Source of the DNA: an uncultured bacterium
GTDB taxonomy: Bacteria > Oederibacteriota > Oederibacteriia > Oederibacteriales > Oederibacteriaceae
Reading direction: 5' to 3'
DNA: 64,000 nucleotides
Assembly (NCBI GenBank): GCA_965112635.1
Contig: OZ218778.1
Coordinates: 437,807 to 501,806 of the forward strand
Both the position numbers and the translations under genes were made by a program. Every line of letters starts with the position of its first letter. Position 1 is the stretch's first letter. A model generated the notes under the pieces. That model saw nothing but the letters and a program-made list of their open reading frames with translations, was not told the origin of the DNA and did no database searches. This document shows positions 7,608-34,928 of this stretch, piece after piece.

Positions 7608-7680
7608 GGCTATTCCTTTCTCATGAAAATTGAGGACAGTATAGCAGAACAAAAACCTTTAAAATAAAACAAAATACCAT

Positions 7681-15162: not shown

Positions 15163-18117
15163 TTAATTTTTCAATACTGTCATTATTACAATCCCCAAAA
15201 AAGCAATACAAGTTATTATCAAACCGAGCATGAACAAAAATGGCTTGTAGACAAATTCAACGATGTGCCTGCCTGGATCCAAAAAGACCCCGCGGAATAA
15301 ATAGTTGACACCCAAAAGGCTTGAGGCTTTGCCGTCCACATAGACCTTCCATCCAGGATAGTTCGAATCCGTTAGCATCAAGATCCCCGGTTTCTTGGTT
15401 TCCGCTTCAATTTTGACCCTTTGCGAGCTATAGGACAAAATACTGGCTGGGACAGCTTTACTAGCCAGACCTCTGCTCAAAGTCTTTAGTTGTTCCACTT
15501 TATCTGCTTGTTCCTTTGATAAGACCACGTATCTCCAGGGGTCAAAACGGCCGTCTTTTAACCGGGAAAGCACTTCCCTTTCACTGCCAACAACTTCTAT
15601 AGAATTAAAGATAGCGGCCCTTGGCAAGGGGTCTGAAATTTCGTAGATCTTAACCTCATTGTCGTAGATCTTCTTAAAAAAAGGATCTTGTTTCCGCCTT
15701 TGGTGCTGAACCCCTTGGTCATCGACAAAACTCAGCTTTCCCCATCCTGCCCGAGATGCCGAGATCAAATTACTGACACCAGGGCCCGTTGAAAACAGCA
15801 GATCGATTCTTTTTCCAGAGAACCTTCGCAGATCTAAATTTAGTTCCTGCCATCCTCTGTCCTGGGAGTTGTTCTTAGGATCAAGGATCCTTTCAAATAC
15901 TTTCTCGATGTTTTTCCCGTCCCTGACCTCCAAAATAAACCTGGCCCCGCTGGTCACCGAGTAAACATTGGGCTCAAGGATAATACCCAAATGGAGAAAA
16001 GGGGTTCGCCGATCAATAACGGTTGTATACGGAAGTCTTGAACTGGGCGGATATTGGCACAGGACCGTTTCAAAACCTCCGTTCACTTTGATGGTTTTTT
16101 TCGTAAACCCGCTCTCATCAGCGCGGTCCTGTCCAGCCAGGATCGCTTCAGAAACATCACCCCTGGAGCCATAAGACGAGATGCTCAACAAATATTTGAT
16201 AGAGGACAACTCAAGGAATCTCTTTTCTAGAGGGGTCTTAAACGAGTAATCGTACATTTTATCGTAGCCGGTGAACCTGTCGGCTAGGTCCTCATGGACC
16301 CTCGCCTCATCACCAGGAGCAAGAAGAAAATTCCTGATAAATTCCCTGTAAGGCCGGTACATCATCGCGGTCAAAGAGCGGACGTCATACAAACCGAATG
16401 TCCCTGCCCAATTGGGAAACAGGACCCCTTCCCGCCCGAACACCCTTGAACCATCGCTCGTTTTGGTCTCTAAAAAATCAACATAGGAGGCTCCCTGGTA
16501 GGGGCTGTATCGGGCAGGAGGGATTTTGTTGACGGAATACAGGCAAGGAAAAATATAATTCAGGAACAGTTCAGCGCAAAGAAAGACCAGCAGCAGCAGC
16601 GGCGCCCAGGAATGTTTTTCCTTTCTGAATAGAAACAAGAACAGGGTGACCGCCGCCAAACTAACCGCCGTGACAAGGACACTACCATAAAAGACCAATG
16701 ACCAGGCGGGTAAAACATGTATCTGGGGGAGCCAAGACAGGGCCAGTCCCATAAGCACCGCCAGGCAAATCACTCCAGTAGTCACGCCAAGCCATCGCTC
16801 CTCCCGGTGCTCCATCCAGGCGAACAAACCCGTTCCCGCCAGAAAAGCCATGGAAAAACCCATCAAAGGTTCTTGGTATTTCGTAAAAGTGACCATATTG
16901 GCGACCGGGACCCCTCCGATCCAATTCACCAGGGGAGAACCGAATCGTTTCATGAGCATCAAAATGATACTAAGACCGAAGAAGCAAACGATGATCCGCA
17001 GGGGGTTACGGGTTCTTTCCCAAAAACTCATGGAGGCCAAAACCGCCATAAGAGCGAATAAAAAAACCACGCCCCCCCAATAAGCCACGAGCCCGGTAAA
17101 ACCCGTTAAGCCCGTGAGGATGCAGTTATAGATTGGGCCGAATGCCAGAGGGACCAGATAGGTAAGGGTCATGCGGAGGTCTCCCTCATGGAGCAAGCCC
17201 ACGATATCTCTAACATTCCCCGGTTGGTGAGTATCTGAGGAGAGGCGCATGAACTCAACGAACGGCAGGAGCAGAAAAGCGGCCAGGCAAAAACCCATCG
17301 CGTAGGCCGCAACGATCTCCATGATGGGGACAGACCAATTAGCCCGCAGTTCGCTATCCGTCAGGATGCGAAACAGAGCATATAGACATCCATAAACCAG
17401 GATCAGGAATGTACTTTCCGGCATACCGGCCACGATAACCTGCCATATCATAAGGGATGCCAGCACGATGTTTTTCTTGCCTTTATTCCTAAGGAGCAGT
17501 TCAAAAGCCCAGAACACGGAAGGCAGTAAAACTTCCACGCTCAGATGATCCACCGGGAGGAAAACGATAAAATACCCGGAGAACATGAAAGCAATGGACG
17601 AGAATAGAGAGGGCAGGAACGGGAGGAACAACTTTGCGAAAAGGAACATGAAAACACCCGCGGTCAAAAACCGGAATATAAGGAAAAGATCCCTGGACGC
17701 TATATTAGGGAAAGGAAAGAACAACAGGTTGGACGGATTGAATGCGGCCGCCTGCATACCTGCTGCCAGGGGCATGCCGTAAGCTTCATAGGGGTCCCAC
17801 AAAGGGAGATTTTTCTCCTGGAAATATTGGTGGGAAATGATCTTGAACAAGGGGTCTGCGTGCCAGGCGGAGGCACCAGGATCGGCTGTCCACAGGAATC
17901 TTTTGGGGGGAATATTTTCTCCGTAGGCTCCGGTTGGCAGGATGCTGGGAACGTCCCGGACACTGGTCAACAGGGTCTTTCCACACCAAATAACGGGAAA
18001 AAAGAAAATATTAAGGACCACAATTAAAATAAATAATGCTTTCAGAGCATCGTTCCGTAACAGTTTCAACGCCCTCATCCTCCAGCTTTCGGTAGTCCGC
18101 CATGCTCTTTCCACCAC
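15163..18117 (-). CDS. Large polytopic membrane protein, YfhO-like (putative membrane glycosyltransferase / glycan-modifying enzyme)
   Basis: 984 aa. More than 12 predicted TM helices fill the N-terminal two thirds, followed by a soluble C-terminal domain. The architecture and size resemble the YfhO family; the assignment rests on architecture only. Confidence 0.5.
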   Translation of the reverse strand: MVERAWRTTESWRMRALKLLRNDALKALFILIVVLNIFFFPVIWCGKTLLTSVRDVPSILPTGAYGENIPPKRFLWTADPGASAWHADPLFKIISHQYFQEKNLPLWDPYEAYGMPLAAGMQAAAFNPSNLLFFPFPNIASRDLFLIFRFLTAGVFMFLFAKLFLPFLPSLFSSIAFMFSGYFIVFLPVDHLSVEVLLPSVFWAFELLLRNKGKKNIVLASLMIWQVIVAGMPESTFLILVYGCLYALFRILTDSELRANWSVPIMEIVAAYAMGFCLAAFLLLPFVEFMRLSSDTHQPGNVRDIVGLLHEGDLRMTLTYLVPLAFGPIYNCILTGLTGFTGLVAYWGGVVFLFALMAVLASMSFWERTRNPLRIIVCFFGLSIILMLMKRFGSPLVNWIGGVPVANMVTFTKYQEPLMGFSMAFLAGTGLFAWMEHREERWLGVTTGVICLAVLMGLALSWLPQIHVLPAWSLVFYGSVLVTAVSLAAVTLFLFLFRKEKHSWAPLLLLVFLCAELFLNYIFPCLYSVNKIPPARYSPYQGASYVDFLETKTSDGSRVFGREGVLFPNWAGTFGLYDVRSLTAMMYRPYREFIRNFLLAPGDEARVHEDLADRFTGYDKMYDYSFKTPLEKRFLELSSIKYLLSISSYGSRGDVSEAILAGQDRADESGFTKKTIKVNGGFETVLCQYPPSSRLPYTTVIDRRTPFLHLGIILEPNVYSVTSGARFILEVRDGKNIEKVFERILDPKNNSQDRGWQELNLDLRRFSGKRIDLLFSTGPGVSNLISASRAGWGKLSFVDDQGVQHQRRKQDPFFKKIYDNEVKIYEISDPLPRAAIFNSIEVVGSEREVLSRLKDGRFDPWRYVVLSKEQADKVEQLKTLSRGLASKAVPASILSYSSQRVKIEAETKKPGILMLTDSNYPGWKVYVDGKASSLLGVNYLFRGVFLDPGRHIVEFVYKPFLFMLGLIITCIAFLGIVIMTVLKN

Positions 18118-19004
18118 TCAATGGCTTGGTCCAACCCCTGCTCCAGATCGTACTTGGGGTGGAAACCGACCTCATCTTTTAACCGCCCAACATCTGCCGT
18201 GAGCTGAAAGGGTTCATTTTCAGGAAAAGGGACCGCACCAAAGTCGACCAAGCCCATTCTGCCTAACTTCAAGGCGATCGTTTCAACGACCTGTCGGACG
18301 GGTTGGGCTTGGCCCGAAGCAATATTGACCGGACCTTCCACCCCAGAATCCAAAAGGGCCACAAAAGAGTTCGCGACATCTTCCACGTGCATGAAATCCC
18401 TTTGCTGGCGGCCATGGGTGCATCGGGCGCGTTCTCCTTTTAATAACGCAAGGATTACTGAGGGGACTAACCGGGCAGGGTTTTCATAGGGACCGTAGAG
18501 AAGGAAGATCCTTCCCCAGGCCCCGCTTAGTCCGTTCTGCTGGCAGGTGGCTGTAAAGGTCTGCTGCAGCAAATGCTTGCTTTTTCCATACAAAGTACCG
18601 GGATTCAAGGGTGTTCGCCCCTCTAGGCACGTCCCATAGCTCCAATCGTATTCAGCACAGGTGCCGGCGAACACCAAACGTTTCCCGCCGTTCCTAGAAA
18701 AGTTCTTGAGAAGCTCTTGGCTGGCCTGCACCCAACGGTGGTTTTCCGGGGAGGCCCAGAACTTACCATGTACGGCATACCAGGCGAAATGAAGGAGAAA
18801 GGAAGGTTTGACCTCTGCAAAAAGCTCTGCCTGCGCCCTGGGGTCCAAAAGGTCGCATTCATGCCTTTGGACTTTTTGAGGAAGCCAAGCCATTTCACGG
18901 GTCCGGATATCGGCCAGATGTACCTCGTATCCGCGTCTCAGGAGTTCAGGAAGAGCCTGGCGACCGATGAATCCGCCGCCTCCGGTCAGGATGATCTTTT
19001 TCAT
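18075..19004 (-). CDS. NAD(P)-dependent NDP-sugar epimerase/reductase (SDR family); probable 4-ketoreductase of the CDP-sugar branch
   Basis: GGGGFIGRQ Rossmann motif and YGKSK catalytic motif. Co-operonic with rfbF, rfbG, the C-methyltransferase and the RmlC-like gene. Confidence 0.7.
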   Translation of the reverse strand: MKKIILTGGGGFIGRQALPELLRRGYEVHLADIRTREMAWLPQKVQRHECDLLDPRAQAELFAEVKPSFLLHFAWYAVHGKFWASPENHRWVQASQELLKNFSRNGGKRLVFAGTCAEYDWSYGTCLEGRTPLNPGTLYGKSKHLLQQTFTATCQQNGLSGAWGRIFLLYGPYENPARLVPSVILALLKGERARCTHGRQQRDFMHVEDVANSFVALLDSGVEGPVNIASGQAQPVRQVVETIALKLGRMGLVDFGAVPFPENEPFQLTADVGRLKDEVGFHPKYDLEQGLDQAIEWWKEHGGLPKAGG

Positions 19005-19531
19005 GGTTCAAAATCCGGATAGCTCAAGTCTTTCTCAGAAATGGCGGTGACGGGCAAAGGCCATTTGATCCCAAAGGCCGGATCATCCCAGCGCACCCCT
19101 TGAGCGGACTCCTTGTGGAAATAACTGGACATCTGGTAAAAGACCTCGGTGCGATCCTGTAGGGTCTGAAAACCGTGCGCCAAACCCTTGGGAATATAGA
19201 GCATCCTATGATTGTCGGCCGAAAGTTCCACGGCATAGGTTTTTTTGAAGGTTGGGGAATGAGGGCGGAGGTCAACGACCAGATCCAGGATAGCGCCCCG
19301 GGTGCAGCGGACGACCTTGCATTCTTCATGGGGGGCCGCTTGAAAATGCATCCCCCTGACCGTTCCCTTTTTGTGGTTAAAGGAAATGTTGCACTGGACC
19401 AGCTCCGGCTCCAGGCTGTGATCGACGAACTCTTGATGGCACCAGCTTCTGGCAAAAAACCCCCGTTCGTCGCTCAGGGGATCCAGATCGATGACCCAAA
19501 CGTCTTGGAGGGGAGTTTCCAAAAATTTCAC
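19001..19531 (-). CDS. RmlC-like cupin NDP-4-keto-6-deoxyhexose 3,5-epimerase
   Basis: The 176-aa product has the RmlC family core (RGMHFQ...K...YIPKGLAHGFQTL). Confidence 0.75.
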   Translation of the reverse strand: MKFLETPLQDVWVIDLDPLSDERGFFARSWCHQEFVDHSLEPELVQCNISFNHKKGTVRGMHFQAAPHEECKVVRCTRGAILDLVVDLRPHSPTFKKTYAVELSADNHRMLYIPKGLAHGFQTLQDRTEVFYQMSSYFHKESAQGVRWDDPAFGIKWPLPVTAISEKDLSYPDFEP

Positions 19532-20763
19532 GGGAGGACCTCGGTCTCAGGGATAGGAACGACGAATTGGCCTCCCCACTCTTTGATATAGGACATTTGT
19601 GCCATGACCTCGCTCTTCAAATTCCAGGGGAGGATCAGTAAATAGTCCGGCTTGGTTTTTTTTATCCTATCCGGGGAAAAGATGGGGATATGGGTTCCCG
19701 GCAGGAAATGGTTCTGTTTATAAGGGCTCCTATCTACCACATAGTCGATCAGGTCTGTCCGGACCCCGCAATAGTTCAAAAGGGTATTGCCTTTGGCCGC
19801 CGCCCCATATCCCACCACGACCTTTCCCTTTTCTTTGGTTTTTATCAGGAATTCCAAAAGCTTGCCTTTGGCCCGAACAGCCTTTTGGCCGAACGAGGTA
19901 TAAGTCTCCAGCTGGTCCAGACCGGCTCTGATCTCCTTGTCCTTGAGCGAGGCGACCCTGGGGCTCAGGGCCTGGATGCCGGTATCCTCATGCTGCCCAT
20001 AGATCCGCAAAGACCCGCCGTGAGTGGGCAGCTCTTCCACATCGAACAAAATCAGTCCGTGTTTCTTGAATATGGCTTCCACCACCATGAAAGAGAGGTA
20101 GGAAAAATGTTCGTGGTAAATGGTGTCGAACTGGTTCTTCTCCATCAGCTGTAGGAGATGGGGAAATTCCATGGTGATCACCCCGGCGTCTTGCAGGATC
20201 ACCTTCATGCCGGCCACAAAATCATTGATGTCCGGCACATGGGCCAGCACATTGTTGCCCAGGAGCAGGTCAGCTTGGACGCCTGAGTCTTTCAGCTCTT
20301 TTGCGGTTTGGACGCCGAAAAACTCGACCAAGGTTGGTATGCCTTTTTCTTCCGCTACCTTGGCAACATTTTTTGCCGGCTCGATGCCGAGAATGGGGAT
20401 GTTTTTCTTTTTGAAATACTGGAGCAGGTAACCGTCGTTACTGGCGATCTCGATCACCTGGCTGTCTTCGCCAAGCGCGAATCTTTCCGTCATCGCTTGG
20501 ACATACTGGGCGCAATGGCTTAGCCAGGCGTCGGCATAGGAGGAGAAATAGGCATAATCGCTGAAAATATTCTCAGGGCTTTCAAATTCTTCCAGCTGAA
20601 CCAGGAAACATTTATCGCACACATAGGCATGGAGCGGATAAAAAGGCTCCATTTTCTTGAGGTTTTCGGGTTTAACATAAGCATTGGAAAGCGGGGACAT
20701 GCCCAGGTCGACAAAGGTCTTTGTTAAAGAAGCCCCGCAAAACCTGCATTTTCCGGTGTTCAT
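19528..20763 (-). CDS. NDP-hexose C-methyltransferase (TylCIII/EvaC type), copy 1, in the CDP-sugar branch
   Basis: N-terminal Cys4 Zn-binding CRFCG...CDKC, a central class I MTase fold, and the C-terminal C-methyltransferase domain. Good RBS (GGGAGGG). Confidence 0.75.
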   Translation of the reverse strand: MNTGKCRFCGASLTKTFVDLGMSPLSNAYVKPENLKKMEPFYPLHAYVCDKCFLVQLEEFESPENIFSDYAYFSSYADAWLSHCAQYVQAMTERFALGEDSQVIEIASNDGYLLQYFKKKNIPILGIEPAKNVAKVAEEKGIPTLVEFFGVQTAKELKDSGVQADLLLGNNVLAHVPDINDFVAGMKVILQDAGVITMEFPHLLQLMEKNQFDTIYHEHFSYLSFMVVEAIFKKHGLILFDVEELPTHGGSLRIYGQHEDTGIQALSPRVASLKDKEIRAGLDQLETYTSFGQKAVRAKGKLLEFLIKTKEKGKVVVGYGAAAKGNTLLNYCGVRTDLIDYVVDRSPYKQNHFLPGTHIPIFSPDRIKKTKPDYLLILPWNLKSEVMAQMSYIKEWGGQFVVPIPETEVLP

Positions 20764-21826
20764 TTACCCTCCCTGGCCATATAGTCTTCGATCTGCATAT
20801 CGGTAAATCCGCGCATATCCCGTTTTTCTTGATAAGCCTTATACCAATCAGCGGTCCATTTCAAGGCCGTGGCCAGGTCCAATTTAGGATGCCATCCCAG
20901 TCTTGTATTAGCCTTGGTGGTGTCCAATTTTAAGAGGCGGGCTTCATGGGGATGCATCCGGGCATCTTTTTTCCAGGCAGCTTTACCTCTCCACTCTTGG
21001 GCCAATCTATCAACCACCCAGGAAACAGGTTTACACCCCTCTTTTTTGGGCCGAAATTCCACCCCTCGGCGAATTCGTCCCCTTTCTGCCATAATTTTTC
21101 CACGAGTTCCATATATCCGAAAACAGGTTCCAGGACATGCTGCCAGGGCCGCACCGCGCCGGGATGGCGCAGTACCACAGGCCTCCCAGCCATAAAGGAG
21201 CGCATGACATCGGGGACCAGCCTGTCTTTGGCCCAATCCCCCCCGCCAAAGACATTCCCAGCCCTGGCCGAAGCGACCGCAGCCGATCCTTTTCTCACCG
21301 AAAAAAAGGACCTCCGGTATGAGGCGACTGCAAGCTCCGCGCAACCTTTGCTGCTGGAATAGGGGTCGTGCCCGCCCATGGTATCCTCTTCGCGGTAACC
21401 CCTGGCCCACTCCCTGTTCTCATAGCATTTATCCGTGGTGATGATCAAAACCGCCCTGGTCCCTCTGGTTTGACGGACCGCCTCCAGGACATTGACCGTC
21501 CCCATGAGGTTAGTATCAAAGGTTTCGACGGGGAATCGGTAGGAATGCCGCAGGATAGCTTGAGCCGCCATATGAATAACGATCTCAGGTCTGTATTTTT
21601 TCATGACCCGGACCAGAGGGTTCAGATCTCGGATGTCTCCCTTCCGGGAGACCATCCCTTGATCCACCTGGAGGATCTCGAACAGGCTGGGACGGGTGGG
21701 AGGATCCAGTGAATAGCCAATGAGCCTAGCACCCATCTTTTTCAGGATTACGGAAAGCCATCCACCCTTAAAACCGGTATGACCGGTCAACAGGACCCTT
21801 TTCCCTTTCCAAAACTGCGGGGTCAT
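20760..21826 (-). pseudogene. rfbG: CDP-glucose 4,6-dehydratase (RfbG/DdhB) with a 1-nt frameshift in an A6 run at about 21049-21054
   Basis: The N-terminal 300 aa (frame of ORF 20930..21910 from MTPQFW) match RfbG through ...EGWNFGP. The true RfbG C-terminus (KPVSWVVDRLAQEW...HPHEARLLKLD...LGWHP) continues in the -1 frame, inside ORF 20760..21410. One extra A would give ...NFGPKKEGCKPVSW... as a single 355-aa protein. Confidence 0.7.
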
Positions 21827-22593
21827 CCCCACATCCTCCACGGAGCTTTTCCCGAAGACCACAGGTCGTTGAGATAGTGCTTGTCCCGGAGAGTATCCAT
21901 GGGTTGCCAAAATCCTTCATGCTTGTAGGCGTTAAGCTCTCCCTCTTGGGCCAGCCGCTCTAGTGGCTCCCTTTCCCATACCGTCGAGTCGCTCTGGATA
22001 TAATCGATGACCTTGTGAGAGAGTACGAAAAACCCCCCATTGATCCACCCTCCGTCCCCTTGAGGCTTTTCCTGAAAACCGGTCACGGCTTGACCTTTCA
22101 TTTGTAAAGCTCCAAAACGGCCTGGCTGACGGGTCGCGGTCAGGGTGGCCAACCGTTTTGACCGTTTATGAAAGGAGAGGAGTTCGGCCAGGTGCACATC
22201 GCCCACTCCATCCCCATAGGTCATACAAAAATCTTTGCCCTCCAGATAGTCCCGTATCCGCTTCAACCGCCCGCCGGTCATGGTGCTTTCACCGGTGTCT
22301 ACCAGGGTCACTTTCCAGGGTTCCGCGCTGTTCTGATGGACCTTCATGCGATTGTGCTTCATATCAAAGGTCACATCCGACATATGGAGGAAGTAGTTAG
22401 CAAAATATTCTTTGATCAAATACCCCTTATACCCCAGGCAAATAATGAACTCGTTGAGCCCAAAATGGGAATAGATCTTCATGATATGCCAAAGGATCGG
22501 CTTCCCCCCGATCTCGATCATGGGTTTGGGCTTGAGGTCTGTCTCTTCTGAAAGCCGCGTCCCCATTCCACCCGCTAAAATGACAACCTTCAT
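21823..22593 (-). CDS. rfbF: Glucose-1-phosphate cytidylyltransferase
   Basis: [14 protein letters not shown]...[19 protein letters not shown] and full-length similarity to RfbF/DdhA. The start is placed at MKVVIL. Confidence 0.85.
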
Positions 22594-22650: not shown

Positions 22651-25600
22651 CTATATCATTTTAGTCTTAAAATTTGGAGGAGCGTCCTCCAAGTTCGGGT
22701 TATAGTAAGGATCAACCTTGGTTTTCCATCGCCACAGTTTGACGAACAGGTCTATTTCCTTTTGGCTTACGCTCTTTTCGCGATTTTGAGATTCGTAATG
22801 GTAAAACAGGCCGAAGGGCGTATACACGATCCGGTAGCCGGCTTCGTGGACCCGGAGGCAATAATCGATATCATTGTAATTCACCGCGAATTCCTCATTG
22901 AACCCCTTCAATTTTTTGAACAGGTCCCTGCGCGTCATCATGCACGCACCCGTCACCGCCAGATAGTTGCGGTTTCCGCAGAGATTGAAAAAGTGCCCTG
23001 GAAAATCCCCGGGATATCCCCTAAAGACATGGTCCGGCAGGCCGTCAATGAATGACACACCGCCATGCTGGAGCGTGCCGTCCCCGTAAAGGAGTTTGGG
23101 ACCCACAACGCCCACATGGCAGTTTTGCATGATCCCAACCATACCTTCGAGCCAGTCCGGGCTGATCAGCTTCACGTCGTCGTTCATAAAAAAAAGGAAT
23201 TCGCCTTTGGCTACCCTTGCCCCTAGGTTCATTTTTTTAGCTACATTGAAGACCGGCTCCCTATAATGAACGAACTCCTTGGCAAGTCTTCTCACATGCT
23301 TTAGGGTTTTCTCGCGCAGGTCTCCGTTATCCACTACAATGATCTCAAAATTCCGATAGGAACTTTTCTTCACGATGGACTCTATACATTCAGCCAAAAG
23401 ATCGGTTTTATGTCCTTTGACCTCCGCGTCCCTGCCCGCGCTAGGTATTACGATCGACACCAAAGGTTCATCCTTGACCTCATACCGGACATAAAAGCAT
23501 CCGGCAAAAGGGCTGTTGCTGACCTTGGCTTTTCCGTTCTTCCTTTCAACACGGCCGCCCAATGCTTTAATAGCGGCATCGGTAACATAATGTTTTTGCT
23601 CCATGGTCAAAGCTGTGGAACCAGGAATGGCTCGCCAGTGATAGAAAACTTTGGGAATATGTTTGATCTTTCTGGCTTTTTCTGTGAATCTTAGAACAAA
23701 ATCAAAATCCTGCGCACCTTCATACCCAAGCCGCATGCCTCCTAGTTCCTTGACCAGAGAGGACCTATAACAAGCTAAGTGCGCGATATACATGCAGGAT
23801 TCAAGGTATTCCGGAGACCAGTCCGGCTTGAAGAAAGGTTCGTAGCGCTGTCCCCGGATGCTGATTTTATCCTCATCGCTGTATATCAGATCTATTTCCC
23901 GGTCCTGGTTGAGCATCCGGGCAAATTCAAAAAGCGCATCAGGAGAAATTTCGTCGTCATGATCCATAAGACAAATATAATCCCCCGTGGCAAGTTCGAG
24001 GGCGGAATTGGTGGAAGCTGAGATATGACCGTTTTTTTCGCGGAAGACAACTTTGATCCTGGGATCCTTGTCGCGGTATCTCTCCAGGACTCGTCTTACA
24101 TGGGACTGAGTGGAGGCGTCATCGGCCAGGCATATTTCAAAATCCGGATAGATCTGACCTAGGATAGAATCCAAGCAGGCATTCAGCCAATGCTCTTCTA
24201 CATTATAGACCGGGATGGCAAAAGAAAATCGAGGACGCCAGCTGAAAGATTTGATCTCATTAGACATTTGGACGCAATCCTGATCCGTAAAGGTATGTTT
24301 TTTTAGCCAGAACTGGTACCGTTCATAATCCAATCTATCCAAGGACTGGAACTGCCCTCTAAGCCGTTGCTTTAAAGAGGCGTATCCCTCGGTAAGCATT
24401 ATTCTAAGGACCTTCAGAGCAAATGTCTTCAAGGTCCCCTGACTAAAGTGATGTTGAAGCTTTTTAACAATGACCGTGAAGCCGATCTCCAAGCGGGTAA
24501 CTTGATAAAGTTCAAGACCAGCTAAGGCGAACTCTGTCGCGTCCGGGAAAGGAACCACTTTGATTTGCAAAATATCACTATTTAATGGGAGAAAGACCGG
24601 CCTCATTTTGATATCAGAGAATCGGATAATCAAAGGATTGGTCACGATAAATCCTTGACCATAATTGAAATACAAATAAATCATTTCTGGCATCGGAACC
24701 GACCCCTGATAGGATACCTTAACCCAGCCTCGCGGAAGTTCAGCCTCTAAAATGAATTCAGAGCTTGGCCTGGCCATCCTCCATCGATTCTCTTTGTCAA
24801 GGATAGGTTCCACATCAAGAAAAGGTTTAAATTTTATAGGGACCTTTTTTCTTAAAAAAAACATTTTCTGTTTTTTGGGACCAAGAAAGCTCCTAAGATA
24901 ATTCTCACGCTCTTCCGTTGTGGTCGGCTTATACGATCTCGTCGGGTCCAGGCTCAGGAGTCGGGCATAGTAACGGACATCCGGTATATGGTCAGCATAG
25001 GTTCTCGTAAATGTTCCCAGTTCTAGAGAAGGGACCAAATCATCCAGATTTTTGGCGCACAGGCCGGACATGAAAGGCGTAAAGACAATCCTTTTCTTTT
25101 GTCTCATGGCATGGGCCCCTGTCCAGGCACCCAAAAAAATCAGAGAGCCACCTGCCCACCTGCCATTTTCCAAAAGCTCCAACAAAAAGGACGCATCAAT
25201 AACTGAAAGGGCACTGGAAACTGCGCTAACCGAATGCGGCTTCCACATCTGGCCGAAATATCCCGGCTTGTCCTTAGAATACCCTCGATCCGGACAGCCC
25301 ACCGCTCCTCCAAACCCGAAGTAGTCCCCTGCGGCCAAGAGATCTCCCTTTTCATTGAAAATCCTTCCTCCGACCATGACCGTATCAGGAAAAAGCTCGA
25401 AATATTTCAGCGTTTCCCAAGGCCAGGAACTCCCCTCCGTTTTGACCCCCTGATAGAGCGTATGGACATATCCTCCGGCTTGCGCTGTATCTCTTACTAG
25501 ATCGGCTATCTCCTTGGGTGTCGCCACCAATGGGACCGCTCTTACCTGATGAACAGGATAGGCCGCGGAGTTCAAAAGAGCACCGCCATCAAAGGTCTCC

Positions 25601-27414
25601 GGATCGTCGCAAAAAACCAAGGTCAGGAAAGGTTTGGAATTTTTATGACCCGGAAAAATGTGCCAATCCGGTGTTTTCTTGTCAAAAAGCGGGCTCAGAC
25701 CGATAGTATATTGTTCGGATGGCCGACAAGATGTCAGGTACTTCCCTATAACGTGTTTTTGGGAATCATAGACATAAGCTTTGGATTCGATATTCAAGGC
25801 GCAAGAATCCGAATGCATGCGCCAGCTATAGAGGATCTCAGGGACGTGTACCGGAACTTGTCCGGCAAGTGTAAAACGCATGAAAGTGTCCCAGTCGTGA
25901 CATCCTTCGGCCTGGGGATCGGAATAGACACCCAACTTCAAAGCGGTTTCCCTATGAATAGCGCCTAAATGGGCTATATAACAGGAGTGGGTAAAAAGGA
26001 CCGGGTCCCAGTCGGGTTTAAGGTAGGGATCGCTCCGCGTTTCTTTCCATCTTTTTTCCTGTTCAATATAAATGAGCCGGATCTTATCTTCATCGGAATA
26101 AAAAAGGTGTGCATTCGGGTTTTTGCGGATATACCACTCCATGATGCGGAGGCTGTCTGGATAAAGGGTATCGTCCGAATCCATGGGGAGAATGAACCGT
26201 CCCTTGGCCTGTTCCAGGCAATATCGCATGCCACCCATTATCCCCAGGTTGTTCTCCACGCGAAAAAGTCTGACCTGTTTATTTTGACCTAACCTCTTGA
26301 GGAACTGGACCGTATCAGGAGCCGTGGAACCATTGTCCAACACGATCCATTCGAAAGAGGGTCGGCCTTTTTGGGACCGTACGCTTCGAGCTAAAGCTTC
26401 TAAATATCGGACCTGGGTATTCCAGGTGCACGTTAATAGCGACATGGTTTTTGCTTCGTTAGGCGCTTTGAAACCATGCGAAATACGTTCCAACCACCCA
26501 TCCTGGTAGCTGTTTCGGCGGTCCCGGACCCTCTTTCGTATCCATAGTTCGTATTCATTCTCATCTCGCATGCCCAGCAAGAACTTCAGGAGGCGCTTGA
26601 TTGCTCGGCCCGGCACTGTCCCGAGGAATTTACGGACCATGGGGTTCATTTTAAGCTTTTCTTTGAGGGTTGTTGGGGCCGCTTCCTCGCGTTTTTTCTG
26701 TTCTTCGTGGCGCTGGTTTTCCAGCTCTTTCTCATGAGATAAGACCCTGGCCGTGAGTTTCTCCGTAAAGAGGATCAGATCTTCTTCAGAGATGGACGGT
26801 CCTTTTTTGAAGACCATGGCCTGAAGTGTCAGGACATCGGGATTGAGTGTGGCATCAGGGTGAAAGCCGTTCTCTCGGAATATTCTGGCCCAATACAAAA
26901 TGGGACGCACATTGATATGGGTCGGTTCGGTAAAATCCGTGGGGGAAGAGGAAAAAAGCACGGCCCCGGCCTTTTCCGTGAGATGCTTGATGCATGCCCG
27001 GCCATCTTGATCCGTCAGATGCTCCACAACCTCAATGCAGGTGACAAGATCATATTCTCGGTTAAGCGGTTCGGTCGCCAAGCCTACCCGGCAGTAGGGA
27101 CGGATGTCTTCACGAACTTGGCTGATAGCGTACTTGGACACGTCCACGCCGTAAGCCAGGACACCGCGGTCCCGGAGCGCCTCCACCAGGAAACCTTTGG
27201 CGCAGCCCACGTCCATGACGGTTCTAGGCTTAAGGTTCTGAACGATCCAGTCCGCCACTTTCCCAAAAAAGTCTAGAAAATGCGGATGACTCCGGTCGTA
27301 TGGGATTGGGCCACAATTATTTTTATAATACTTTTTGCCGAAAAGGGATTGTGCCTTACCAATATTGATTCCGTCATGTTTTTTCAAGGATCTTCCCCGC
27401 CAAATCAAATCCAA
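22651..27414 (-). CDS. 1587-aa multidomain glycan-assembly enzyme (WbdA/WsaE-like): an N-terminal SAM methyltransferase followed by three GT2 glycosyltransferase domains
   Basis: MTase motif I VMDVGCAKGFL and post-I CIEVVEHL. The three GT2 modules begin about aa 330 (WIVLDNGS...PMDSDDTLYPD), about aa 750 (FAIPVYNVEE...ADDAST...DHDDEISPD) and about aa 1230 (VSIVIPSAG...VVDNGD...FMNDDV). The gene sits directly downstream of wzm-wzt-MTase. Confidence 0.8.
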   Translation of the reverse strand: MDLIWRGRSLKKHDGINIGKAQSLFGKKYYKNNCGPIPYDRSHPHFLDFFGKVADWIVQNLKPRTVMDVGCAKGFLVEALRDRGVLAYGVDVSKYAISQVREDIRPYCRVGLATEPLNREYDLVTCIEVVEHLTDQDGRACIKHLTEKAGAVLFSSSPTDFTEPTHINVRPILYWARIFRENGFHPDATLNPDVLTLQAMVFKKGPSISEEDLILFTEKLTARVLSHEKELENQRHEEQKKREEAAPTTLKEKLKMNPMVRKFLGTVPGRAIKRLLKFLLGMRDENEYELWIRKRVRDRRNSYQDGWLERISHGFKAPNEAKTMSLLTCTWNTQVRYLEALARSVRSQKGRPSFEWIVLDNGSTAPDTVQFLKRLGQNKQVRLFRVENNLGIMGGMRYCLEQAKGRFILPMDSDDTLYPDSLRIMEWYIRKNPNAHLFYSDEDKIRLIYIEQEKRWKETRSDPYLKPDWDPVLFTHSCYIAHLGAIHRETALKLGVYSDPQAEGCHDWDTFMRFTLAGQVPVHVPEILYSWRMHSDSCALNIESKAYVYDSQKHVIGKYLTSCRPSEQYTIGLSPLFDKKTPDWHIFPGHKNSKPFLTLVFCDDPETFDGGALLNSAAYPVHQVRAVPLVATPKEIADLVRDTAQAGGYVHTLYQGVKTEGSSWPWETLKYFELFPDTVMVGGRIFNEKGDLLAAGDYFGFGGAVGCPDRGYSKDKPGYFGQMWKPHSVSAVSSALSVIDASFLLELLENGRWAGGSLIFLGAWTGAHAMRQKKRIVFTPFMSGLCAKNLDDLVPSLELGTFTRTYADHIPDVRYYARLLSLDPTRSYKPTTTEERENYLRSFLGPKKQKMFFLRKKVPIKFKPFLDVEPILDKENRWRMARPSSEFILEAELPRGWVKVSYQGSVPMPEMIYLYFNYGQGFIVTNPLIIRFSDIKMRPVFLPLNSDILQIKVVPFPDATEFALAGLELYQVTRLEIGFTVIVKKLQHHFSQGTLKTFALKVLRIMLTEGYASLKQRLRGQFQSLDRLDYERYQFWLKKHTFTDQDCVQMSNEIKSFSWRPRFSFAIPVYNVEEHWLNACLDSILGQIYPDFEICLADDASTQSHVRRVLERYRDKDPRIKVVFREKNGHISASTNSALELATGDYICLMDHDDEISPDALFEFARMLNQDREIDLIYSDEDKISIRGQRYEPFFKPDWSPEYLESCMYIAHLACYRSSLVKELGGMRLGYEGAQDFDFVLRFTEKARKIKHIPKVFYHWRAIPGSTALTMEQKHYVTDAAIKALGGRVERKNGKAKVSNSPFAGCFYVRYEVKDEPLVSIVIPSAGRDAEVKGHKTDLLAECIESIVKKSSYRNFEIIVVDNGDLREKTLKHVRRLAKEFVHYREPVFNVAKKMNLGARVAKGEFLFFMNDDVKLISPDWLEGMVGIMQNCHVGVVGPKLLYGDGTLQHGGVSFIDGLPDHVFRGYPGDFPGHFFNLCGNRNYLAVTGACMMTRRDLFKKLKGFNEEFAVNYNDIDYCLRVHEAGYRIVYTPFGLFYHYESQNREKSVSQKEIDLFVKLWRWKTKVDPYYNPNLEDAPPNFKTKMI

Positions 27415-27433
27415 AAATATTATTCACAACCAG

Positions 27434-28594
27434 TCACATTCGACGAAAGCTAACAACAAATTCATCAGTATGTGCGTAAGGTTCAAATGTTTCTTCCAAA
27501 GAAAGGGGTAAAAGCTTAAGCCTCCTGATCACTTCCCAGCACTCAATGAATGAATCAAGCGTCCAAACATTGCAGTGGACATCATGATAATGATTATTTG
27601 ATAACAGATCGACAGCTGCCTGAAATGCTGATTTCAATTTTTCATCATTATAGGTGGAAGTTTTTACAGGCTTTGGTTCAATGTATGACATAAATGCTAT
27701 AAAATCAAACACCTGCTTGACCGAAGGGCGTTCCAGATTCCGTATGTAGGCATCCACTAGGTCTGATGGGGTGGACAGAGCGCGAAAATGGTCAAAAGTG
27801 CGTGTTTTCTCGGGAATCGCCAAATTGATCAGACCTCCTGGCTTAATGACCGAAGCGATCTGGGACAGCCATCCTATGGGGTTCGGGACATGCTCTATCA
27901 CATGTGCCGCAACGCAGTAATCAAAAGTTATATCCTGCGGGATCACATTTCGGATAGGCCCGCCGGACCAGATAAAATCAATATCGCAAATCTTGTCTAT
28001 ATCTACGTATATCGTTTGATTTGCCTTGTATTTTTTTATGAGACCGTCCCTGTCCGCATGGTCTACATATTTGACATTGGTTTTTTGTTTGGAGAGAAGC
28101 GGGCGGTCAAGCGGACCCAGCTCTATCCCAACCATGGTATCCAGGGATATTCCCCTCAATAGCCGCCTCAAACGCTCTTGATGCCAGGTGCATGGTGAAT
28201 TCACCAGATGCGCGCCATTGGGGAAACGGACTTCCAGGGTATCCGAGACGGTCAACGGTTCGGGGAAGTTGAAGTTAAAGCCAGCTTCCCGCGGCAATCC
28301 CGCCGCTGCAAGATCATCCCTGGAGTTATTTGGCGGCACCCGAGCCAGCAATTTACCGTTTAAAAAAAGGTCCACGGAGGATGGCTGTTTTTTTGAATCA
28401 ACCGCCCAGCCGGCTATATGGCTTTGGTGGCACATATCTACGTACCCCTGGTAACCGCCCTTATCCTCGGCTCCAAGCGGACGCTTGTTAAAGCTAAACG
28501 CGCTCAGTCCGGATTTGAAAGAAGATAACAATTTGCGTATTGTCCCTTTTTTGTGTTCAGTCATGATCAATCCTTTAACATGCGCCATTGACAT
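27434..28594 (-). CDS. Putative chain-terminating methyltransferase (WbdD-like position; divergent MTase fold with an N-terminal beta-rich domain)
   Basis: The C-terminal half has an MTase-like layout (GIELGPLD...; CVAAHVIEHVPNP...IKPGGLINLAIPE). The gene order wzm-wzt-this gene-polymerase mirrors E. coli O8/O9a wzm-wzt-wbdD-wbdA. The start is uncertain (28594 or 28564). Confidence 0.45.
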   Translation of the reverse strand: MSMAHVKGLIMTEHKKGTIRKLLSSFKSGLSAFSFNKRPLGAEDKGGYQGYVDMCHQSHIAGWAVDSKKQPSSVDLFLNGKLLARVPPNNSRDDLAAAGLPREAGFNFNFPEPLTVSDTLEVRFPNGAHLVNSPCTWHQERLRRLLRGISLDTMVGIELGPLDRPLLSKQKTNVKYVDHADRDGLIKKYKANQTIYVDIDKICDIDFIWSGGPIRNVIPQDITFDYCVAAHVIEHVPNPIGWLSQIASVIKPGGLINLAIPEKTRTFDHFRALSTPSDLVDAYIRNLERPSVKQVFDFIAFMSYIEPKPVKTSTYNDEKLKSAFQAAVDLLSNNHYHDVHCNVWTLDSFIECWEVIRRLKLLPLSLEETFEPYAHTDEFVVSFRRM

Positions 28595-29799
28595 GGAAGA
28601 TACGCAACCCCAAGGTTTCCCTTAACTTTTTCTGATTCTAAAACTATGAATGGAAAATGCTTATCCCAATGGTCATAACATATTGAACCGGTATAATTAT
28701 AAATAGCCGCCGTAAAATTATATCTCCCGGGTAAAAGGGGTAACGAATCGATCGAATATTCAACGGCTCCCTCCCCCTTAACAGTCGAAGTATTAAAATC
28801 ACTTATCTTGGTATTGGTACCATTGACATGGAACCCGTCTTCACGATGAATGGCCACACCGAACATAGGCTTTTCTATTTCTTTATGAGCAATATATTCA
28901 ATATGCACAGCAAAAGGTTCATTGGTTCTAAAAACATTACCCATGGTTCCATCACTTTTCACAAAATTGACGGCTGTAATTTCCATTTCTTTGTTCCCCC
29001 ATCGGTTCGGGACATTTTGATAATGCAGGGTGCGGCGGACAGCTTCGGCGTTGGTGTGCAAGAGTTGGTGATACGTGGCGATCACACTATTCGGCTCCCC
29101 GATCTTAAAGCATGCCCCCTGGTCCAGAAGACACACCTGGTCGCACATCTGCTCCACCGCATTGAGGTCGTGGGATACCAGCAGGATGGTCTTGCCGCTT
29201 TTCCTCAGGTCCCTTACCTTCTCAAGGCACTTGGCCTGGAAACTTTCGTCACCCACGGCAAGGATCTCGTCGATGATCAGGATATCGGGGACCACATGGA
29301 TGGCCACGGAAAAGGCCAGCTTCATGTACATGCCGCTGGAGTAGGTTCGGACCGGGTCGTCGATATACTCCCCCATCTCGGCGAACTCGACGATCTCGTC
29401 GAACTTGGCCTTGATCTGGTTTTTGGAGAGTCCCAGGATGATACCGTTGATGATCACGTTTTCCCGCCCTGATAATTCAGGATGGAATCCGGCTCCCAGC
29501 TCGATCAAAGCGGCGATATTGCCTTGGACCGTGATAGCGCCCTCGTCCGGCTTGAGAATGCCGCTGATCAGTTTGAGAAGGGTGCTTTTACCCGAACCGT
29601 TCCTGCCGATGATCCCAAGCGTGGTCCCTTTTTCGATTTGCAGAGTAACGTCCTTTAGGGCCCAAAGCAGATCCCTGCCAGTATCCTTTCGGGGATGCCA
29701 TAGGTCGTAAAGGATATAGGATTTAAGGGAGGTCATGATGGGCCGCCGTCCATGGCGGGAGAATTTTTTTGACACTCCTTTTATCTCGATACTGTGCAT
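28567..29799 (-). CDS. wzt: O-antigen/glycan ABC transporter ATP-binding protein with a C-terminal carbohydrate-binding domain
   Basis: Walker A GRNGSGKST, signature YSSGM, Walker B ILIIDE. An extra ~150-aa beta-rich C-terminal domain is typical of Wzt proteins that recognise a terminal glycan modification. Confidence 0.85.
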   Translation of the reverse strand: MHSIEIKGVSKKFSRHGRRPIMTSLKSYILYDLWHPRKDTGRDLLWALKDVTLQIEKGTTLGIIGRNGSGKSTLLKLISGILKPDEGAITVQGNIAALIELGAGFHPELSGRENVIINGIILGLSKNQIKAKFDEIVEFAEMGEYIDDPVRTYSSGMYMKLAFSVAIHVVPDILIIDEILAVGDESFQAKCLEKVRDLRKSGKTILLVSHDLNAVEQMCDQVCLLDQGACFKIGEPNSVIATYHQLLHTNAEAVRRTLHYQNVPNRWGNKEMEITAVNFVKSDGTMGNVFRTNEPFAVHIEYIAHKEIEKPMFGVAIHREDGFHVNGTNTKISDFNTSTVKGEGAVEYSIDSLPLLPGRYNFTAAIYNYTGSICYDHWDKHFPFIVLESEKVKGNLGVAYLPCQWRMLKD

Positions 29800-29802
29800 G
29801 GC

Positions 29803-30579
29803 CTACACTTCCTCCGCGAAAACGTCTTTTCGTGAATCAAAGAACATCAAGGCCAATACAAAGAAGACTAAAGTGAAAAGGGTCAGCAGGGCGAGACCCG
29901 TGAGGGAAGGCATCCGGTCATAAAAGAAAATATCATGGTAAGCCCCGATGAACCAAGCCATGGGGTTGTAGTTCAGCAGAAACTGATATTTGGCCGGGAT
30001 CATGCTCTCGGGATAGACCACCGGCGTGGCGAACATCCAGATCATAAGGAGATTGGGAACGATATGTATCAGGTCCCGGAACTGCACCACCAGGGAGGAA
30101 GTGATCAGGGTCAAACTAAAAGCAAAGACGAACTGGACCGCCATAATGAAGGGCAGGAGAAGCAGGATCCATGAAAATTTGATCCCAAAACAAGCCAAAA
30201 AGATCAAAAGAATAGGAAGGCTGAGCAGATAATGGATCATGGTCGAGGCCGTGGTGACCAGGGGAAATATCTCCGCGGGAAGGGACACTTTTTTGATCAG
30301 GCCTCCGTTGACCAGGATAGAGCTGGACCCCTCGGTCAGCGCCGACGAGAACCACGCCCAGGGCAGGATCCCGCACAGAAGATAGGCGGAAAAATGCTCC
30401 ATCTGTACCCGCATATATACGGAGAACACAAGCACATAGATCAGCATCAAAAGTAGAGGGTTGATGAAGGACCACAAAAATCCCAGGGAAGTGCCCCGGT
30501 ACCGCACCTTGAGCTCTTTCGCGATAAGCACCTGGGCCAGGCCGTAATACCTATAAAGCTGAAGGATGCGTTCTATCAC
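29803..30579 (-). CDS. wzm: ABC-2 type polysaccharide export permease
   Basis: 258 aa with six predicted TM helices and ABC-2 family features. Translationally coupled to wzt. Confidence 0.85.
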   Translation of the reverse strand: MIERILQLYRYYGLAQVLIAKELKVRYRGTSLGFLWSFINPLLLMLIYVLVFSVYMRVQMEHFSAYLLCGILPWAWFSSALTEGSSSILVNGGLIKKVSLPAEIFPLVTTASTMIHYLLSLPILLIFLACFGIKFSWILLLLPFIMAVQFVFAFSLTLITSSLVVQFRDLIHIVPNLLMIWMFATPVVYPESMIPAKYQFLLNYNPMAWFIGAYHDIFFYDRMPSLTGLALLTLFTLVFFVLALMFFDSRKDVFAEEV

Positions 30580-31659: not shown

Positions 31660-31734
31660 TGTGCCTCCTTGGGCTCTTTGAGCCTCATCGTTCTATCTCG
31701 ACTCATCAATATAACACCAATTTTCATTGCCTGG

Positions 31735-32991: not shown

Positions 32992-33006
32992 GGAAGTCAG
33001 CCTGTT

Positions 33007-33945: not shown

Positions 33946-33978
33946 GATTCTTCCTCCGATCTAAAAAAAGAATGATAA

Positions 33979-34926: not shown

Positions 34927-34928
34927 GA

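Follow-up and report, generated by a model that had tools for sequence, protein, structure and literature searches.

A translationally coupled gene module for a predicted CDP-linked C-methyl-branched 6-deoxy sugar in a surface-polysaccharide cluster of an uncultured bacterium

The window analysed here (64,000 nt from an uncultured bacterium) contains five genes that run along the minus strand from 22593 to 18075 in the order rfbF, rfbG, TylC3-type C-methyltransferase, RmlC-type epimerase and SDR reductase. At each of the four junctions, start and stop codons overlap by 4 nt (ATGA or GTGA). A sequence-only reading had placed and assigned the five genes in this way, and the profile scores and coordinates given below bear it out. 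Directly upstream, 36 nt from rfbF, lies the minus-strand gene (22651..27414) for a 1587-aa protein with an N-terminal methyltransferase domain (PF13489, residues 60-160) and three GT2 domains (three PF00535 stretches), a candidate polymerising or terminating glycosyltransferase. At the other end, a minus-strand gene for a 984-aa polytopic membrane protein (15163..18117) begins inside the reductase gene, with an overlap of 43 nt; the YfhO-like C-terminus of this protein matches PF09586 (46.4 bits) over its last 80 residues only. Wzt, an ABC ATPase with a Wzt_C carbohydrate-binding domain, and the ABC-2 permease Wzm (28567..30579, minus strand; PF14524 84.7, PF00005 78.6 and PF01061 65.9 bits) are the predicted export system of the cluster, which also has, on the strand of the module, genes for numerous glycosyltransferases and for an initiating transferase of the WcaJ type. 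The five genes most likely form one translationally coupled module, within this surface-polysaccharide cluster, that makes a CDP-linked C-methyl-branched 6-deoxy sugar.

The products of rfbF and rfbG are assigned as CDP enzymes, both passing NCBIfam equivalog models. RfbF, a glucose-1-phosphate cytidylyltransferase (21823..22593, minus strand), matches TIGR02623 over its full length with 467.4 bits (cutoff 300.25). If translation starts at the ATG at 22593, which has a GAGG ribosome-binding site on its 5' side, the protein comprises 256 aa; a GTG at 22614 is an alternative start. The CDP-glucose 4,6-dehydratase gene rfbG (20760..21826, minus strand) is split over two frames in this assembly, the N-terminal part matching TIGR02622 with 409 bits (profile 1-262) and the C-terminal part, in the other frame, with 71 bits (profile 244-352). 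The apparent frameshift is present in the window's own sequence at an A6 homopolymer (21042..21047, minus strand; T6 on the plus strand). Adding one A to the run gives a 355-aa protein ending in AREGK. L082, an ENA assembly from this organism, has A7 at this site and encodes the intact 355-aa RfbG; over 3236 nt it shows 0 mismatches to the window, the A6/A7 run being the sole difference.

An independent Logan contig (L081) shares the A6 run with the window, so that rfbG is broken in two of the three assemblies. This would fit a real and fixed frameshift in a decaying pseudogene cassette; formation of the CDP-4-keto sugar would then have ceased, leaving the downstream genes as silent passengers or supplied by another pathway. 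We consider such decay improbable. The frame-shifted C-terminal part of RfbG fits the family profile through its last residue, and the ORFs of the other four genes are uninterrupted, their 4-nt overlaps are kept and, in the case of the epimerase and the C-methyltransferase, the catalytic residues are conserved; long inactivation would be expected to have eroded these features. Because the otherwise identical L082 has A7 and an intact gene, the frameshift probably reflects a miscalled homopolymer or variation within the population (minority slippage). The concern, raised earlier, that rfbF or rfbG might be pseudogenes thus comes down to a lone A6/A7 difference.

The third gene (19528..20763, minus strand) encodes a 411-aa nucleotide-sugar C-methyltransferase of the TylC3/TcaB9 type, with an N-terminal Cys4 zinc ribbon (PF08421, 94.5 bits) and a PF08484 domain (224.9 bits). 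Solved sugar C3-methyltransferases in the PDB match it at 1e-90 to 2e-70, among them MtmC (4rv9, 1e-90), KijD1 (5t64) and TcaB9 (3ndi). The zinc cysteines (Cys6/9/49/52) are kept, as are Tyr70, His175, Tyr216, Glu218 and His219, the five residues that mutagenesis of TcaB9 has probed. Identity is 57% to the Bacillus operon enzyme Cmt, compared to 34-38% for dTDP enzymes (MtmC 38%, KijD1 and TcaB9 34%). In a neighbour-joining tree without bootstrap, the protein falls inside a clade of rfbF-linked homologues that includes the Bacillus operon enzymes, with the dTDP enzymes outside. Given the MtmC match, the retained residues and this clade, its identity as a sugar C-methyltransferase stands, and the clustering with non-sugar methyltransferases that had been put forward as a check was not seen. 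TylCIII methylates at C3 with inversion (PMC3539893). Since C5-methyltransferases also occur in the family, whose set includes NovU, the C3 regiochemistry of the window's enzyme rests on its identity to the Bacillus enzyme. The window also contains a second C-methyltransferase; the conserved cassette to which it belongs, which also encodes a GDP-heptose C4-dehydrogenase similar to Cj1427, appears to be more novel than the CDP module.

The fourth gene (19001..19531, minus strand, GTG start) encodes a 176-aa RmlC-type (cupin) NDP-4-keto-6-deoxyhexose epimerase, matching PF00908 with 217 bits and TIGR01221 with 170.5 bits (cutoff 155.75). Its residues His62, Lys72, Tyr132 and Asp168 align with His63, Lys73, Tyr133 and Asp170 of S. 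enterica RmlC. It is a second paralogue, 40% identical to the product of the window's own rmlC (59611-59051), and is 55-66% identical to epimerases encoded after the C-methyltransferase in other genomes. The fifth gene (18075..19004, minus strand) encodes a 309-aa candidate SDR-family NDP-sugar 4-ketoreductase (PF01370, 146 bits) with GxxGxxG and YxxxK motifs. It is 42% identical, over its full length, to the product of the gene right after Cmt in Bacillus loci L083, L085 and L087. Its relatives bear generic names only, and no close solved structure was found in the PDB (best match UXS1, 83 bits).

A complete rmlABCD set is also present in the window (60494-57091). The last three enzymes of the module could in principle draw on dTDP-4-keto-6-deoxyglucose supplied by rmlAB and make a dTDP-mycarose- or evalose-like sugar, with rfbF and rfbG serving otherwise. 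The epimerase exceeds the cutoff of a dTDP-specific RmlC model and its nearest structures are true RmlCs (138 bits); dTDP sugars are also the substrates of all solved homologues of the methyltransferase. However, translational coupling ties the three genes to rfbF and rfbG, synteny with the cytidylyltransferase gene is kept across phyla, and the methyltransferase groups with rfbF-linked enzymes, including those of Bacillus operons, apart from the dTDP enzymes. We therefore regard the use of dTDP sugars by the module as very improbable.

No DegT/DdhC-like gene was found in the window by tblastn (best E = 1.1), and Pfam and NCBIfam surveys found neither DdhC nor DdhD among its large ORFs. The CDP-3,6-dideoxyhexose pathways (ddhABCD or ascA-F, leading to abequose, paratose, tyvelose and ascarylose) have their first two enzymes, RfbF/DdhA and RfbG/DdhB, in common with the window but also have DdhC (E1) and DdhD (E3). 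C3 would therefore be methylated here, not deoxygenated. These results agree with the sequence-only reading, which had noted the absence of 3-deoxygenation genes and, from the CDP enzymes and the sugar C-methyltransferase, had proposed a CDP-activated C-methyl-branched 6-deoxyhexose. The CDP-6-deoxy-D-gulose pathway of Yersinia enterocolitica O:8 (DdhA, DdhB, WbcA, WbcB), a listed known pathway, likewise has no DdhC or DdhD and has a cupin epimerase and an SDR after the 4,6-dehydratase; unlike the window, it has no C-methyltransferase. In the dTDP-L-mycarose pathway, TylC3 is the C3-methyltransferase, TylK the 5-epimerase and TylC2 the 4-ketoreductase. This pathway and its relatives (EvaC/EvaD/EvaE, MtmC, TcaB9, KijD1) have the methyltransferase family and catalytic residues in common with the window, and also the methylate, 5-epimerise, reduce logic, the gene order and C3 methylation with inversion. 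They differ in using dTDP and a 2-deoxy or 3-amino substrate for actinomycete natural products, and in having the more distant methyltransferases that lie outside the rfbF-linked clade.

Such logic on a CDP scaffold had been thought not to be commonly described. CDP-cereose and CDP-cillose are in fact listed among experimentally characterised pathways, the characterised enzymes including Q81B31, a C-methyltransferase from B. cereus, and the Bacillus operons are homologous gene for gene. The B. cereus work is cited by others as Li et al. 2017, J Biol Chem 292:7636. Like the window, the Bacillus operon uses CDP, has the cytidylyltransferase, 4,6-dehydratase, SAM C-methyltransferase and SDR genes in the same order, and has no 3-deoxygenation genes. 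The four-gene operon of Li et al. is said to yield CDP-3-C-methyl-6-deoxy-gulose (cereose) or -allose (cillose). Identity to Bacillus loci other than the characterised ATCC 14579 operon is 60% for RfbF, 44-46% for RfbG, 57% for the methyltransferase and 42% for the SDR. Because four of the five genes match the characterised B. cereus operon, the module is, by homology, a variant form of an already known pathway, extended by an RmlC-type epimerase. This epimerase, which lies between methyltransferase and reductase and is absent from the Bacillus operon, is what sets the module apart. The context also differs, being a spore glycan in Bacillus, whereas the window's module comes from an uncultured bacterium and lies in a polysaccharide cluster of the ABC-transporter type. 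In S. meliloti, SMb21416-21418 have been annotated as ddhA, ddhB and NDP-hexose 3-C-methyltransferase since at least 2013. At least 15 genomes, spread over several phyla, carry the colinear five-gene cassette: it is present at 15 of 80 loci from species-representative genomes (67 of these loci with long enough flanks on both sides), in Proteobacteria, Cyanobacteria and Planctomycetota, and in a Chloroflexi MAG.

What the sequences show directly is the family to which each enzyme belongs, the retention of catalytic residues, the coupling of the genes, their synteny, and their homology to Bacillus operons of characterised type. The order of methylation and epimerisation, the regiochemistry and stereochemistry, and use of the product by a glycosyltransferase are inferred. 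RfbF would convert CTP and glucose-1-phosphate to CDP-D-glucose, and RfbG would form CDP-4-keto-6-deoxy-D-glucose. The zinc-ribbon methyltransferase would then take the C3 proton beside the 4-keto group and put the SAM methyl on C3. As C3 would now be quaternary, the RmlC-type enzyme could work solely at C5, leading to the L series, and the SDR would reduce C4.

The same enzymes might instead act in another order or at other positions. Epimerisation of CDP-4-keto-6-deoxy-D-glucose could come first, the enzyme being either a 3-epimerase, as Yersinia WbcA is, or a 3,5-epimerase, with methylation later, or NovU-type C5 methylation could be paired with C3 epimerisation. These routes would end in another stereoisomer or in a 5-C-methyl sugar. 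The RmlC-type catalytic residues are all conserved, so C3 chemistry is possible. Membership of NovU in the methyltransferase family set and the listed CDP-6-deoxygulose pathway are also consistent with such schemes, as is the existence in the PDB of a CDP-specific cupin epimerase (5buv, which we take to be WbcA), although at 94 bits it is more distant than the true RmlCs. However, the genes run methyltransferase, epimerase, reductase, as in TylC3/TylK/TylC2, and the methyltransferase most resembles, among the enzymes compared above, that of Bacillus operons with no epimerase gene. If the four Bacillus genes suffice, as reported for ATCC 14579, the methyltransferase would act directly on the dehydratase product. 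We consider a different order or regiochemistry unlikely.

Methylation at C3 before epimerisation at C5 would give CDP-6-deoxy-3-C-methyl-L-mannose (3-C-methyl-L-rhamnose) or CDP-6-deoxy-3-C-methyl-L-talose, the latter being the unmethylated vinelose core; the stereochemistry in this organism is entirely a prediction. CDP-vinelose (CDP-6-deoxy-3-C-methyl-2-O-methyl-L-talose) was reportedly obtained from Azotobacter vinelandii by Okuda, Suzuki and Suzuki in the 1960s and, to our knowledge, is known as a compound with no gene set assigned. Like the predicted product, it is a CDP-linked 3-C-methyl 6-deoxy L-hexose, equivalent before 2-O-methylation to the Bacillus pathway plus a 5-epimerase. Nearby O-methyltransferases may modify the product further. 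A bacterial O-antigen containing 3-C-methylrhamnose has been described (PMC7203242). Since the window has an epimerase, an L-series C5 epimer of cereose or cillose is expected. It is therefore likely that the module makes a CDP-activated 6-deoxy-3-C-methyl-hexose, the C5 epimer of the Bacillus sugars, for the surrounding ABC-transporter-dependent surface glycan.

All five cassette genes that the sequence-only reading had described were found on the minus strand, each with a matching family profile. The first gene, rfbF (22593-21823), encodes a glucose-1-phosphate cytidylyltransferase that matches the TIGR02623 equivalog over its full length (467 bits against a cutoff of 300), and its ATG at 22593 has a GAGG ribosome-binding site in front of it. 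Next come rfbG (21826-20760), a CDP-glucose 4,6-dehydratase gene that matches the TIGR02622 equivalog in two frames, and the gene for a 411-aa C-methyltransferase (20763-19528; PF08421 zinc ribbon, 94.5 bits; PF08484, 224.9 bits). A 176-aa RmlC-type epimerase (19531-19001; PF00908, 217 bits; TIGR01221, 170.5 bits against a cutoff of 155.75) and a 309-aa extended SDR, the candidate 4-reductase (19004-18075), complete the set. Adjacent genes overlap by 4 nt (ATGA or GTGA) at all four junctions, and the five genes therefore form a translationally coupled unit. Promoter-like sites (17 seen, 16.1 expected) and terminator-like sites (17 seen, 22.1 expected) were at chance level.

The reported lack of 3-deoxygenation genes was borne out. 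No DegT/DdhC-like gene was found in the whole window (best E = 1.1), nor was a DdhD-like gene found in domain-family surveys of its large ORFs. Since neither DdhC (the PMP-dependent E1 enzyme of the DegT family) nor DdhD (the E3 reductase) is present, we rejected a CDP-3,6-dideoxyhexose pathway (ddhABCD). The functional reading of the cassette, a CDP-activated C-methyl-branched 6-deoxyhexose, is essentially right.

The same reading held that such logic on a CDP scaffold is not commonly described, and here it was wrong. The pathways to CDP-cereose and CDP-cillose have been characterised and diverge at the C4-reductase step, B. cereus Q81B31 is among the experimentally characterised nucleotide-sugar C-methyltransferases, and the CDP-cereose/CDP-cillose pathway occurs in 81 of 12,939 genomes; CDP-6-deoxygulose is a further CDP branch without 3-deoxygenation (PMC7725333). 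S. meliloti SMb21416-21418 are annotated as ddhA, ddhB and NDP-hexose 3-C-methyltransferase. Bacillus cereus-group plasmids carry homologous operons of rfbF, rfbG, methyltransferase and SDR in the same order as the window, with identities of 60, 44-46, 57 and 42%, respectively, and the cytidylyltransferase is the first gene in both. An operon of this type was described by Li et al. in 2017. Its cytidylyltransferase, CDP-glucose 4,6-dehydratase, SAM C-methyltransferase and NADPH-dependent 4-reductase reportedly make CDP-3-C-methyl-6-deoxygulose (cereose), probably along with the allose epimer (cillose). In the window, however, the methyltransferase and reductase genes are separated by an RmlC-type gene, which the Bacillus loci lack. 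Because of this extra epimerase gene, compared with a four-gene composition that gives D-gulo/D-allo products, the cassette is a variant and not a plain member of the Bacillus type. We conclude that the cassette represents a characterised route, that to CDP C-methyl-6-deoxyhexoses, in a variant form with an extra, predicted 5-epimerase, that it is widespread, and that its novelty was overstated. We know of no biochemical study of the epimerase-containing form. In two of the Bacillus loci (L083, at 7182-8111, and L085, on B. cereus/B. thuringiensis plasmids) the reductase gene is broken into two ORFs, with IS4 and TnpB elements flanking the operon, which suggests a decaying mobile copy.

In a PDB search, the C-methyltransferase matched MtmC (4rv9, 1e-90), KijD1 (5t64) and TcaB9 (3ndi), each over the full length. 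It has the domain set of the TylC3/TcaB9 family, namely an N-terminal Cys4 zinc ribbon with all four cysteines conserved (Cys6, Cys9, Cys49 and Cys52), a class I SAM fold and a C-terminal PF08484 domain. Its Tyr70, His175, Tyr216, Glu218 and His219 align with residues 78, 183, 224, 226 and 227 of the TcaB9 chain, active-site residues that were reportedly mutated by Bruender and Holden (2012). Rather than grouping with non-sugar methyltransferases, the enzyme is thus a sugar C-methyltransferase, as indicated by the solved homologues, the zinc cysteines and the active-site set. It is 57% identical to the Bacillus proteins, compared to 34-38% for the dTDP enzymes (MtmC, KijD1 and TcaB9), and a neighbour-joining tree places it with the Bacillus enzyme inside an rfbF-linked clade, with those three enzymes outside. 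From its identity to the Bacillus-type enzyme, we infer that it would methylate C3 rather than C5 of the 4-keto sugar. TylCIII methylates C3 with inversion at that carbon (PMC3539893), and NovU-type C5 enzymes belong to the same methyltransferase family (PMC7725333).

In the epimerase, His62, Lys72, Tyr132 and Asp168 align with His63, Lys73, Tyr133 and Asp170 of Salmonella RmlC (1dzr). The window also holds a complete dTDP-L-rhamnose set on the minus strand: rmlA (60494-59769), rmlC (59611-59051; 246 bits), rmlB (58934-57936) and rmlD (57939-57091). The cassette epimerase is only 40% identical to this rmlC product, compared to 55-66% for epimerases that follow the methyltransferase in other genomes, and is therefore a second paralogue, probably a dedicated one. 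It scores above the dTDP-RmlC equivalog cutoff (TIGR01221), yet its gene is coupled to CDP-pathway genes. A dTDP substrate supplied to the cassette by the rml genes of the window is highly improbable, as the coupling, the synteny and the methyltransferase clade all speak against it.

The SDR contains GxxGxxG and YxxxK motifs in its translation, and over its full length it is 42% identical to the product of the gene that follows the methyltransferase gene in the Bacillus loci. This full-length comparison was made with L087, the third of those loci, as the fourth gene is disrupted in L083 and L085. No close solved structure was found among the PDB matches, and relatives from the homologue search carry generic names only. 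A CDP-tyvelose 2-epimerase type was rejected, as 1orr was absent from the PDB matches at E <= 1e-8.

We propose the following route for the cassette. Because both are equivalog matches, RfbF would form CDP-glucose and RfbG would convert it to CDP-4-keto-6-deoxy-D-glucose. The TylC3-type enzyme would then methylate C3, likely with the face selectivity of the Bacillus operon methyltransferase given the identity between them. Since a methylated C3 has no proton, the RmlC-type enzyme would be limited to C5, where it would act next, and the SDR would finally reduce C4. With this predicted step order, regiochemistry and stereochemistry, the expected product is 6-deoxy-3-C-methyl-L-mannose or 6-deoxy-3-C-methyl-L-talose, the C5 epimers of 6-deoxy-3-C-methyl-D-gulose and -D-allose. 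The talose product corresponds to vinelose minus its 2-O-methyl group. CDP-vinelose carries the 6-deoxy-3-C-methyl-2-O-methyl-L-talose sugar and was isolated from Azotobacter vinelandii in the 1960s. A literature search on vinelose found nothing, and searches on 3-C-methyl sugars with cytidylyltransferase or C-methyltransferase, and on WbcA or 6-deoxy-D-gulose, found nothing relevant. The mannose product is 3-C-methylrhamnose, which occurs in the Burkholderia andropogonis O-antigen with its absolute configuration undetermined (PMC7203242). A different order or regiochemistry, in which the epimerase acts first or C5 is methylated as by NovU, is unlikely.

A frameshift had raised the concern that rfbF/rfbG might be pseudogenes. 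The frame break is real in this sequence: profile positions 1-262 of TIGR02622 match with 409 bits and positions 244-352 match in a second frame with 71 bits, the break itself being an A6 run at 21042-21047. The exact C-methyltransferase protein is present on three public contigs. A Logan contig (L081) is identical to the window, with A6. An ENA contig of the same organism (L082, 387 kb) carries a 355-aa dehydratase gene and, over 3236 nt, differs from the window by 0 mismatches and a single indel, A7 instead of A6. Adding one A to the window rfbG likewise gives a 355-aa protein whose C-terminus fits the family profile to the end. The other four cassette genes are intact and their catalytic residues are kept. 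A real, fixed frameshift that leaves the pathway inactive is quite improbable, given that an A7 allele exists and that the partner genes are intact. The evidence favours a miscalled homopolymer, or slippage variation inside one population, over an old pseudogene, and rfbG in the window likely contains an assembly error. A programmed frameshift was rejected, as nothing that would support it was found and there is an A7 allele.

The C-methyltransferase family is very large, with more than 8000 database matches, the closest (about 72% identity) in cyanobacteria. We compared synteny at 80 loci from species-representative genomes, 67 of which had enough flank on both sides to be judged. Across many phyla in this sample, the cytidylyltransferase and dehydratase genes lie directly upstream of the C-methyltransferase gene and an RmlC-type gene lies directly downstream. 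The complete colinear five-gene cassette is present at 15 of the 80 loci (67 judgeable), and the epimerase-less order, with the reductase directly after the methyltransferase, at four. Carriers of the five-gene form include Noviherbaspirillum sp. ST 5-3 (L032), Gammaproteobacteria, a Burkholderiales MAG, Phycisphaerales, Zetaproteobacteria and several Microcoleus species, and a Chloroflexi MAG reached via the reductase has the same set of five. The annotations in such genomes read simply "class I SAM-dependent methyltransferase" and "NAD(P)-dependent oxidoreductase". As for the uncultured host of the window, its Rho protein is closest to sequences of Methylomirabilota/NC10 (81-83% identity), which gives an approximate placement.

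It should also be noted that Microcoleus spp. (L023-L042) and three further loci (L001, L003 and L067) keep the five-gene order with a cytidylyltransferase about 50% identical to that of the window and a dehydratase only 31-34% identical; the first two steps in those cyanobacterial loci may belong to another enzyme lineage. A plasmid of Peteryoungia desertarenae (L084; NZ_CP058351.1, 1-9018) has two divergent CDP cassettes back to back. One contains rfbF, rfbG, an epimerase-family gene, the methyltransferase and a DegT aminotransferase gene, and perhaps makes an amino, C-methyl sugar. The other contains rfbF, rfbG, the methyltransferase, rfbC and GT2, without an adjacent reductase.

The gene context suggests that the product is used in an exported glycan. 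The cassette starts 36 nt downstream of a gene for a 1587-aa protein. It belongs to a cluster of genes on one strand, about 40 kb long, whose other products include Wzm, Wzt (with a Wzt_C domain), a WcaJ-type initiating transferase, O-methyltransferase candidates and more glycosyltransferases. The minus-strand region 22651-30579 encodes this 1587-aa protein (an N-terminal methyltransferase domain plus three GT2 domains), a 386-aa methyltransferase-like protein, Wzt with its C-terminal carbohydrate-binding domain, and Wzm. This layout resembles ABC-transporter O-antigen systems in which a terminal methyl cap sets chain length (E. coli O8/O9a type). On the other side, a gene for a 984-aa polytopic membrane protein (15163-18117, minus strand; YfhO match, PF09586, in the last 80 residues only) has a start that overlaps the reductase gene end by 43 nt. 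This protein is perhaps linked to the cassette, as a periplasmic glycosyltransferase of the GT-C type or as an enzyme that modifies the polymer. At 42066-40621 (minus strand) lies a gene for a B12-binding radical SAM enzyme, whose best matches (HpnJ and families of C- or P-methyltransferases) all score well short of the cutoff. It adjoins the gene for a GDP-mannose 4,6-dehydratase (43118-42141, minus strand; TIGR01472, 406 bits against a cutoff of 415), and the pair may represent a further unusual sugar modification. GC content falls to 0.38-0.39 at 46-52 kb, compared to about 0.48 elsewhere, and this stretch encodes a CoiA_N-like protein and has ORFs that match nothing in Pfam. Genes for an rve-family integrase (52465-51749) and a Mutator-family transposase (52655-53887, plus strand) adjoin it, and the region 46000-53900 was probably inserted as an island that now separates the glycan cluster from the rml genes.

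A second C-methyltransferase cassette occupies 30658-36131, also on the minus strand. It encodes a second TylC3-type methyltransferase (36131-34929; PF08421, 81.7 bits; PF08484, 173.7 bits) that is 35% identical to the first, a GDP-fucose-synthase-like (GMER-like) SDR (34926-33979), a Cj1427-like C4-dehydrogenase of the SDR type (33945-33007), an L-2-hydroxyglutarate-oxidase-like flavoprotein (32991-31735; NF008726, 336 bits against a cutoff of 299) and an HddA-like GHMP kinase (31659-30658). The Cj1427-like protein matches PDB 6vo6/6vo8, presumably Campylobacter jejuni Cj1427, over its full length with 355 bits. Cj1427-type enzymes produce L-2-hydroxyglutarate, and the adjacent oxidase could regenerate their co-substrate by recycling this product. 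Relatives of the second methyltransferase were compared at 80 loci. In the 41 metagenome loci that span at least 9 kb, a GMER-like gene is present in 32, a Cj1427-like gene in 29 and an HddA-like kinase gene in 24. The oxidase-like gene (33-50% identical) occurs in only 5 of the 80 loci. This pattern suggests a conserved pathway, apparently not yet characterised, by which GDP-heptose or GDP-mannose is turned into a C-methyl sugar.

Taken by itself, the window yields a modest gain, in that its annotation is correct, rfbG is likely to contain an assembly error and the claim of novelty has been corrected. It is possible, if on balance doubtful, that the five-gene form is the gene set, hitherto unassigned, for CDP-vinelose-type sugars (CDP-6-deoxy-3-C-methyl-L-talose or -L-mannose) and is widespread in bacterial phyla, and that a second, independent C-methyl branch with a Cj1427-like GDP-heptose C4-dehydrogenase operates here. 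If so, the exported polymer would carry two different C-branched sugars, one of a C-methyl-heptose type of which we know no earlier description. Branched-chain deoxysugars have mostly been studied as dTDP sugars in actinomycete antibiotics. The cassette and its many relatives indicate that surface-glycan clusters of environmental bacteria, cyanobacteria and uncultured lineages among them, commonly contain a CDP-based C-methyl pathway. The epimerase-containing form is a candidate gene set for CDP-vinelose and for O-antigen 3-C-methylrhamnose, and cultured carriers of the cassette exist, such as Noviherbaspirillum sp. ST 5-3.
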